A stretch of DNA of 64,000 nt, from the NCBI RefSeq assembly GCF_022846255.1, contig NZ_AP025682.1. One strand, 5' to 3'. Within the stretch, counting starts at the first letter, position 1; each line of letters begins with the position of its first letter. The translations under genes were made by a program, and so were the position numbers. The notes below the pieces were generated by a model. That model ran no database searches. It had not been told where the DNA came from and was given only the letters and a program-made list of their open reading frames with translations. This DNA is from Escherichia coli (GTDB lineage: Bacteria > Pseudomonadota > Gammaproteobacteria > Enterobacterales > Enterobacteriaceae). Shown one piece after another: positions 50,666 through 51,641 of this stretch.

Positions 50666-50986
50666 TTATTCAGGCCATGCCAATCCATCACTGAATTTTT
50701 TATGCCAATATTTTCTTGAGTAAAAATCATCCCTGTCCAGATGATATATTAAATCTTGTATCCTTTTGCCTGGCTTATATTCATATTTGTATAACATAGT
50801 AGCAAGTTCAGATTGCATACGAAAGAGGTCATCAAATAGAGGCTGTGCATTATCAAAATTGGTGCTTCCGATCTGATGAACTAACGATTCAATACACTCC
50901 TCATACAACCGAAGGTTACGTTTTATTGATAAAACAACATCTCGATACATCTCAAGATCTCGTTGAAATTCAGGCCAAATATCCAT
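50666..50986 (-). CDS. hypothetical 106-aa cytoplasmic protein, translationally coupled to the upstream ORF (possible immunity protein)
   Basis: Strong RBS AAGAGGAGG 13 nt after the stop of the upstream ORF; AT-rich; no recognisable family. Confidence 0.5.
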   Translation of the reverse strand: MDIWPEFQRDLEMYRDVVLSIKRNLRLYEECIESLVHQIGSTNFDNAQPLFDDLFRMQSELATMLYKYEYKPGKRIQDLIYHLDRDDFYSRKYWHKKFSDGLAWPE

Positions 50987-51002
50987 TTACCTCCTCTTTT
51001 TA

Positions 51003-51641
51003 TTTAACCTTGACTGGTTGAATATGACCAACTTGTCCCGTTTTCGGGTTATAGATCATTTCAAGACCTGCACCTTCATATCTTAAGTAGCCAGGTGCGC
51101 CTCTAGGATCCGGCTCAACTTTTGGATTGCTATTCAAAACTTCTCTTGCTTGCACGAATGGCGCAGGTCTGCCTTGCTCTCATAATTTCTCATAATAACT
51201 TTTGCTGAATTTCATTCCATCTACAGTATAAAAATCACCATCAAAGGATATCTTTTTCCCAATACCAAGGTAGCTTAATTTATTTGATGCAGCTTGCCCT
51301 ATAAGAGGCGTTGCCGAAGCCGCAATGATCTCCAAGCCCTGCTTTGTTTCGGTGTAGCTTTCTGCGGTCTGACGATCCCCCCCTTTGGTGACCATGAAAT
51401 AGTTAATCATGGCGTTTTTCACCTGCTGCTGATTCTGTGCATCAACACTGGTGATATCGAGGAGATTGACTATCTGACCATACGCATCAGCGTATTGCTG
51501 GCTGTATTTCGAGTTATAAGGGCCATCTTCGTACCCTTCTTTCGACGCAATAACTTTCAGTCTTGCGCTGGCACACGCTGAACTAACCGCCGTTATTACC
51601 GGAGATATACTGCTCCTTAAAGCCACGCACTGAACTCTCAC
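51003..51641 (-). pseudogene. hypothetical protein with an in-frame TGA (153 codons + TGA + 59 codons); possible polymorphic-toxin C-terminal module
   Basis: ORF track 51180..51641 ends ...KFSKSYYEKL; the same frame continues past TGA as EQGRPAPFVQAREVLNSNPKVEPDPRGAPGYLRYEGAGLEMIYNPKTGQVGHIQPVKVK to TAA at ~51000; AT-rich relative to the flanking tpsB-like DNA. Confidence 0.35.

Follow-up and report, generated by a model that had tools for sequence, protein, structure and literature searches.

The 64,000-nucleotide stretch of Escherichia coli DNA analysed here (the window) holds, at positions 50666-51641, an AT-rich cassette of two genes of which the upstream one is cut by an in-frame TGA. 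This raises the question of what the cassette derives from, and of what it can still do for its host. A preliminary description, made from the letters alone, had taken it for a possible orphan toxin/immunity module. The cassette is almost certainly the decayed 3' end of a cdiBAI locus of the type known from E. coli NC101. Both proteins belong to a system that is already known, and the locus is in an ordinary state of decay.

Layout and identity of the cassette

All the parts of the cassette lie on the minus strand. A 153-codon ORF (51641-51180) runs from a GTG start at 51641 to the TGA at 51182-51180, beyond which the same frame holds 59 sense codons (51179-51003) followed by a TAA at 51002-51000. 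After a spacer of 13 nt (50999-50987), which holds AAGAGGAGG at 50998-50990, comes a 106-codon ORF that starts with the ATG at 50986 and stops with the TAA at 50668-50666. The preliminary description had given this very layout, and its coordinates agree to the base. The drop in GC content that it reported downstream of a tpsB-like gene was also recovered, from 0.55-0.59 over the tpsB/cdiB fragments (51600-53000) to 0.37-0.45 over 50600-51600. Its caveat about the N-terminal part of the 153-codon ORF was well founded: codons 1-19 are not derived from cdiA and overlap, in another frame, the last cdiB fragment (ORF 51828-51583), and homology to cdiA begins only at 51585. The features of the locus are as follows.

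50666-50986, minus strand: cdiI (NC101 type), intact, 106 codons; 106/106 residues identical to WP_000355946.1 and to chain B of PDB 5I4Q/5I4R
50987-50999, minus strand: cdiA-cdiI spacer with the Shine-Dalgarno sequence AAGAGGAGG (50998-50990), read from the sequence
51000-51585, minus strand: cdiA 3' remnant, CdiA-CT codons 62-255 plus TAA, with TGA at codon 196; 99.3% identical to NC101 cdiA
51003-51278, minus strand: BECR-fold, EF-Tu/EF-Ts-dependent tRNase domain, residues 164-255, split by the stop (match to 5I4Q_A; PMC5737660)
51180-51182, minus strand: nonsense TGA in place of Trp196 (TGG to TGA, G-to-A on the coding strand), by comparison with NC101
51584-51585, minus strand: deletion junction between cdiB nt 1508 and the third position of CdiA-CT codon 61, by comparison with NC101
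51586-53025, minus strand: cdiB (tpsB, ShlB/FhaC family) pseudogene, nt 68-1508 of 1773; 97.3% identical to NC101 cdiB, with two indels
53026-55509, no strand assigned: IS3-family (IS600-like) element interrupted by IS30, after cdiB nt 67, from ORFs, junction sequences and Pfam matches (rve, HTH_21, HTH_38)
55510-55722, minus strand: detached 5' end of cdiB (first ~74 nt) with its upstream region; 92% identical to NC101 (L003, 12128-12339)

When 5,426 complete E. coli genomes (RefSeq) were searched by megablast with 50600-51700, the regions returned had a gene annotated "cdiA: contact-dependent inhibition effector tRNA nuclease" and, next to it, one for a small hypothetical protein; E. coli NC101 was one of these genomes. 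The segment 46523-51585 and the NC101 chromosome share 99.2% identity as well as their gene order, namely nanX, nanY, an IS4 transposase remnant, cdiI and cdiA. The 106-residue protein is identical at 106 of 106 positions to NC101 WP_000355946.1 and to chain B of PDB 5I4Q/5I4R ("Contact-dependent inhibitor I", E=1e-71). It bears the UniRef name "Immunity protein CdiI, CDII_ECONC", occurs on at least 1000 contigs and is assigned to PF28101 "CdiI-like" in the pre-computed annotation of a large protein collection.

Upstream, 51000-51585 corresponds to the last 194 codons of NC101 cdiA (99.3% identity). If the stop is read as Trp, this frame covers 92/92 residues of 5I4Q_A (E=2e-59; residues 164-255), from which it differs only by I217V and by the stop at codon 196. 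The N-terminal part of the remnant, residues 62-163, matches residues 63-175 of 6VEK, the cytoplasm-entry domain of CdiA-CT-EC3006 (E=2e-37). Residues of CdiA-CT are counted from Val1 of VENN as in Michalska et al. 2017 (PMC5737660), and the numbering was checked on Y192, Q198, R200, E236, H248 and Q250, all found at their published positions. Pfam-A gave no match, even at E<=10, for the TGA-repaired 194-residue toxin fragment or for the 106-residue protein (the release used seems older than PF28101), and NCBIfam gave none for either. The identification therefore rests on the DNA identity with NC101 and on the sequence matches to PDB entries.

The toxin tip with cognate immunity proposed by the preliminary description is hence a remnant of CdiA-CT-NC101 (5I4Q_A) with CdiI-NC101 (106/106 to 5I4Q_B). 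Neither protein family had been recognised, although the pair is among the best-characterised CDI pairs (PMC5737660).

When set beside the crystallised NC101 pair (PDB 5I4Q, 5I4R; Michalska et al. 2017, PMC5737660), the window has an identical CdiI, a nuclease domain identical except for I217V and the stop, an equal cdiA-cdiI spacing and the same context of nanXY, IS4 remnant, cdiI, cdiA and cdiB. It differs from NC101 by the TGA at Trp196, by the missense changes V130G, V152A and I217V, by a cdiB that is a pseudogene, and by the lack of CT residues 1-61 (with VENN and Cys55) and of the rest of cdiA (9.6 kb, including the 3' end of cdiB). The Shine-Dalgarno sequence is also different, AAGAGGAGG in the window versus AAGAGGAAG in NC101.

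In public records, the broken toxin frame is called as two "hypothetical proteins" of 153 residues (51180-51641) and 51 residues (51000-51155), and cdiI is likewise annotated as "hypothetical". The 153- and 51-residue ORFs are pseudogene fragments, and the downstream "hypothetical protein" should be named CdiI.

Lesions of the toxin arm

In an intact system, CdiB exports a CdiA filament of about 3,300 residues. Once it touches a target cell, its last ~255 residues, which follow VENN, are cleaved off, and the N-terminal entry domain of this CdiA-CT carries it over the inner membrane via PtsG. The nuclease then binds EF-Tu and cuts the tRNA acceptor stem, while CdiI binds the toxin together with EF-Tu and neutralises it. 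The NC101 toxin is a BECR-fold tRNase that depends on EF-Tu and EF-Ts (PMC5737660). In the window, cdiI is the only gene of the NC101-type locus that can still encode a full-length protein. Because of the lesions of cdiB, of cdiA and of the nuclease domain, the toxin arm is broken at export, delivery, import and catalysis.

The decayed tpsB-like gene noticed in the preliminary description proved to be a cdiB pseudogene. Its main part (51586-53025, nt 68-1508 of 1773; 97.3% identity to NC101 cdiB, 2 indels) is split into three ORFs, and the gene carries five lesions in total, namely an IS insertion, a nonsense codon, two frameshifts and a 3' truncation. The IS3-family (IS600-like) element is inserted after nt 67 (53026-55509) with a CAAC duplication and is itself split by an IS30 (transposase 53972-55123). 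This block parts cdiB from its start codon and native upstream region, which now lie 2.5 kb off at 55510-55722. One nucleotide is deleted near 52972, a Glu codon has become TAA at 52338-52340, and a poly-G tract at 51860-51870 (C11 on the plus strand) has expanded by two G, from 9 to 11. With such a pseudogene, export would be lost. POTRA and ShlB Pfam matches were obtained on the cdiB fragments, and rve, HTH_21 and HTH_38 matches on the IS ORFs, in sister contigs. The cdiB/IS junction is absent from the complete RefSeq E. coli genomes. The locus is clearly not an intact cdiBAI, cdiB having five lesions and cdiA being reduced to its last 194 codons. As a side observation, the poly-G tract is G9, in frame, in NC101, G10 in four sister assemblies and G11 in the window; this length variation reflects either a slippage-prone tract or homopolymer sequencing noise.

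Relative to NC101, 9,561 bp are absent: cdiB lacks its final 265 nt, and cdiA everything up to CT codon 61. The junction (51584/51585) joins cdiB nt 1508 to the third base of CT codon 61 at a 2-nt microhomology (TA), and the cdiB frame ends in a TAG made by the join. CdiA has thereby lost its TPS domain, FHA repeats, receptor-binding region and VENN motif as well as Tyr5 and Cys55. This microhomology-mediated deletion of 9.6 kb has spared only CT codons 62-255 of cdiA; the parts for secretion and receptor binding are gone, as are the VENN cleavage site and one half of the entry domain. In NC101, VENN sits 61 codons upstream of the junction; it is absent from the remnant, and no cdiA or relevant VENN-encoding sequence was found elsewhere in the window.

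The entry domain is also incomplete, since only residues 62-163 are left, with Cys65 kept and Cys55 gone. NC101, 3006 and STEC_O31 have a common, PtsG-dependent family of entry domain, for which import needs exact cleavage after VENN and in which the Cys55-Cys65 disulfide stabilises the domain and so favours translocation (PMC9424206). Residues 62-163 of the window align with residues 63-175 of the E. coli 3006 domain (PDB 6VEK; PMC9424206). Unlike that domain, the remnant consists of the C-terminal part only: the first ~60 residues are gone, and with them most of the N-terminal subdomain, the VENN site, Tyr5 and Cys55, all relevant to translocation. A role of the truncated entry-domain fragment as a decoy that blocks PtsG-dependent import was considered and dropped, the frame having no genuine start codon or ribosome-binding site.

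The deletion junction was found in 0 of the 5,426 complete E. coli genomes, and a scan for its 36-nt sequence in GTDB species-representative genomes gave none. It is common to five other assemblies (two from NCBI, two from Logan and one from ENA).

The remaining lesion lies within the nuclease domain. Codon 196 is TGA where NC101 has TGG (Trp), a single G-to-A transition, and R200, E236, H248 and Q250 all map downstream of it. Arg200Ala and His248Ala each abolish the tRNase activity of CdiA-CT-NC101 and its growth inhibition (PMC5737660). In the window, the stop at codon 196 precedes both Arg200 and His248, which are therefore not encoded in one uninterrupted ORF; with both essential residues downstream of the stop, catalysis would be lost. 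The proposal of a nonsense-inactivated toxin with a retained immunity gene is thus borne out, with TGA in place of Trp196 and an intact cdiI.

By the preliminary description, a coordinate error behind the continuity of the frame across the TGA would have refuted its reading. The TGA is not an error of coordinates or sequencing, because the identical 153-residue product is encoded in five other, independent assemblies (two from NCBI, two from Logan runs and one ENA metagenome contig), whose identity to the window is 99.9-100% from the IS elements through the cdiB remnant, the junction and the TGA to cdiI. The same product is found as GenBank BDH35232.1, GDA05478.1 and GDA48699.1 (E. coli), and the look-up of exact protein matches leads to the strains HmCmsJML153 and TRECRb50. 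A probe of 61 nt centred on the TGA had no exact match in the 5,426 complete E. coli genomes, 75 of which match it end to end with one mismatch. Among the 113 complete genomes holding this stretch, none has TGA at codon 196, and the codon is TGG in all four alleles read directly (NC101, M19, L009, L010). From these comparisons, the TGA is a derived, lineage-specific mutation, and neither an error nor a conserved recoding site.

The immunity gene and the competing readings

It should be asked which reading of the remnant accounts best for an intact immunity gene next to such a toxin. Very probably, the window holds a dead CDI locus of the NC101 type in which immunity alone is left; the identity of its genes and their lesions are read in the DNA, whereas expression of cdiI and its benefit are what we infer. 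Two other readings were weighed. In the sense of Poole et al. 2011 (PMC3150448), a classical orphan cdiA-CT/cdiI module is a silent spare that can be fused again to cdiA by homologous recombination at the VENN-encoding region, and its proposed role is that of an immunity repertoire. As in these modules, the window has a toxin fragment without start codon or other initiation signals, followed by an intact cdiI with its own Shine-Dalgarno sequence and ATG; furthermore, the same module is a true displaced orphan in other strains (L002, L009-L012). However, an orphan module usually reaches back to VENN or beyond and follows an intact cdiBAI, whereas here VENN and all upstream homology are deleted, so that the remnant starts at CT codon 62, and the window has no other cdiA or VENN-encoding sequence. 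The module adjoins cdiB at the primary position, as in NC101, and its nuclease domain holds a nonsense codon. An orphan of this kind is very improbable, and the "orphan" label of the preliminary description does not suit a module that holds the primary position in its locus and owes its present state to an internal deletion of 9.6 kb, in which VENN was lost too. That the TGA is recoded, as selenocysteine or by efficient read-through as Trp, and that a full-length active toxin fragment is made, is scarcely credible. The frame stays open for 59 codons beyond the TGA, and near-cognate read-through of UGA inserts Trp, which is the wild-type residue. The relatives argue against it, with TGG in the four that were read directly and TGA in 0 of the 113 complete genomes holding the stretch. 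No SECIS-like structure or read-through hairpin was found in the 61 nt from the TGA onwards, which fold no better than shuffles (z = 0.21). The frame also has no genuine start, VENN or secretion partner, and a toxin fragment made from it could act in its own cell only, with CdiI there to neutralise it.

As regards the dead locus with its remaining cdiI, the window was compared with four alleles (NC101, M19, L009, L010). In its lineage, the toxin remnant has acquired V130G, V152A and I217V (missense) and W196*, and cdiI nothing. This contrast of 4 to 0 derived changes is not significant (~0.17 by chance under equal rates), and purifying selection on cdiI is therefore not demonstrated. In the spacer, a derived A-to-G at 50991 has changed AAGAGGAAG, present in all four alleles, into AAGAGGAGG, which lengthens the match to GGAGG; cdiI has a ribosome-binding site of consensus strength.

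The same toxin is broken otherwise elsewhere. In L009-L012 (L009 6001-6869), it carries a +G frameshift at CT codon ~199/200 and E197A; these are displaced orphans downstream of an intact cdiA with a different tip, and they keep a full-length 106-codon cdiI. In strain M19 (L002 6067-7167), where the module is likewise a displaced orphan, one nucleotide is missing at codon 56, and cdiI is again full-length. The retention of cdiI after independent toxin losses fits the published views that orphan cdiI genes are expressed and protective, as in EC93 (PMC3150448), and that selection to keep cdiI is strong (PMC4927057). The proximity of W196* and of the +G at ~199/200, four codons apart, was considered as a sign of a mutational hotspot and dropped, its chance being ~0.1.

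Up to 700 nt upstream of cdiI, a tool scan and a relaxed scan yielded only 8-of-12 matches to sigma-70-like sites, and nothing strong. On the strand of cdiI, the single 9-of-12 sigma-70-like match is a hybrid site (TTGCCA-17-TATGCT with TG, 53041-53013) that lies across the IS/cdiB junction and is directed towards cdiI. A transcript coming from upstream would cross ~2 kb of untranslated pseudogene RNA and would be exposed to Rho-dependent termination. The tight translational coupling described earlier is moot, the upstream frame having no genuine start and ribosomes being expected to halt 177 nt before cdiI. An Rfam scan of 46000-56000 detected no RNA family.

The function of CdiI-NC101 is predicted from its 106/106 identity to a crystallised and functionally tested protein. 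If made, CdiI would bind the incoming CdiA-CT-NC101 together with EF-Tu, as in 5I4Q/5I4R, and protect the cell; if transcribed, cdiI would give immunity alone against neighbours with the NC101 toxin, without the cost of the weapon. The chances that cdiI is expressed and useful in the strain of the window are put at slightly better than even.

The chief alternative is that mutation has not yet reached cdiI, the last piece left: the whole locus would be inert, cdiI being untranscribed, giving no protection, and intact only due to its small size (321 nt) and to the recency of the decay. The IS elements have cut off the native upstream region, no convincing promoter lies near cdiI, the remnant differs from NC101 by only ~0.7%, so that little time has passed, and the contrast of 0 to 4 derived changes is not significant. 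On the other hand, cdiI keeps its ATG, its Shine-Dalgarno sequence has changed towards the consensus, and independent lineages with differently broken toxins all keep it at full length. IS ends also often supply outward promoters. The expression of orphan cdiI genes in EC93 (PMC3150448) points in the same direction. An entirely inert locus is a serious alternative, with perhaps one chance in three. At the opposite end, it can be proposed, more tentatively still, that the immunity-only genotype was selected and is not passive debris: the weapon would have been shed among NC101-type CDI+ relatives, with cdiI held, its ribosome-binding site improved (from AAGAGGAAG to AAGAGGAGG) and transcription provided from the IS/cdiB junction. 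If this were true, repeated and independent loss of the toxin with cdiI kept would amount to a parallel evolution of CDI "cheaters".

A comparable situation has been reported in Salmonella Typhi, where, as far as it is described in the article citing it (PMC9086364), a stand-alone cdiI islet keeps an immunity gene without a working CDI weapon, presumably against competitors. That islet belongs to another toxin/immunity family (EC869 type), whereas the cdiI of the window is still flanked by remnants of cdiB and cdiA, which makes its route of decay readable.

For the pair itself, the cassette adds little, the structure, substrate, cofactors (EF-Tu, EF-Ts) and entry route (PtsG) being already published. 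In the same way, the decay of CDI loci with immunity genes kept is already discussed in the literature. What the window provides is a readable decay series for one module, which goes from the intact NC101 locus to a displaced, frameshifted orphan, and to a 9.6-kb deletion with a nonsense codon and an untouched cdiI. Such a series could serve in a survey of populations on whether selection keeps immunity genes in place after their toxins are lost.

Surroundings of the locus in the window

The core genes found in 1-15000 (mscM, yjeM, amiB, queG and others) share at most 98.3% identity with any of the 5,426 complete RefSeq E. coli genomes, which indicates that the host is an E. coli lineage not represented among them. 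On the nanX side, NC101 has an orphan "VENN motif pre-toxin domain" gene; the homology of the window to NC101 starts only at 46523, and an IS630-family transposase (45341-46372) lies just upstream of nanX.

Directly beyond the upstream region of cdiB is a variable island (55965-64000), 95-97% identical to its best E. coli matches. One of its genes (55965-57218) belongs to the dGTP triphosphohydrolase family, and others encode H-NS-like, ProQ/FinO-like and YagK/YfjJ proteins. The region looks like a mobile island, and the dGTPase is possibly involved in phage defence. Elsewhere, the window holds a chaperone-usher fimbrial cluster on the minus strand (38289-42247), with an usher (38724-41312), a chaperone (41480-42247) and a subunit (38289-38708), flanked by IS3-family fragments (43351-44564).
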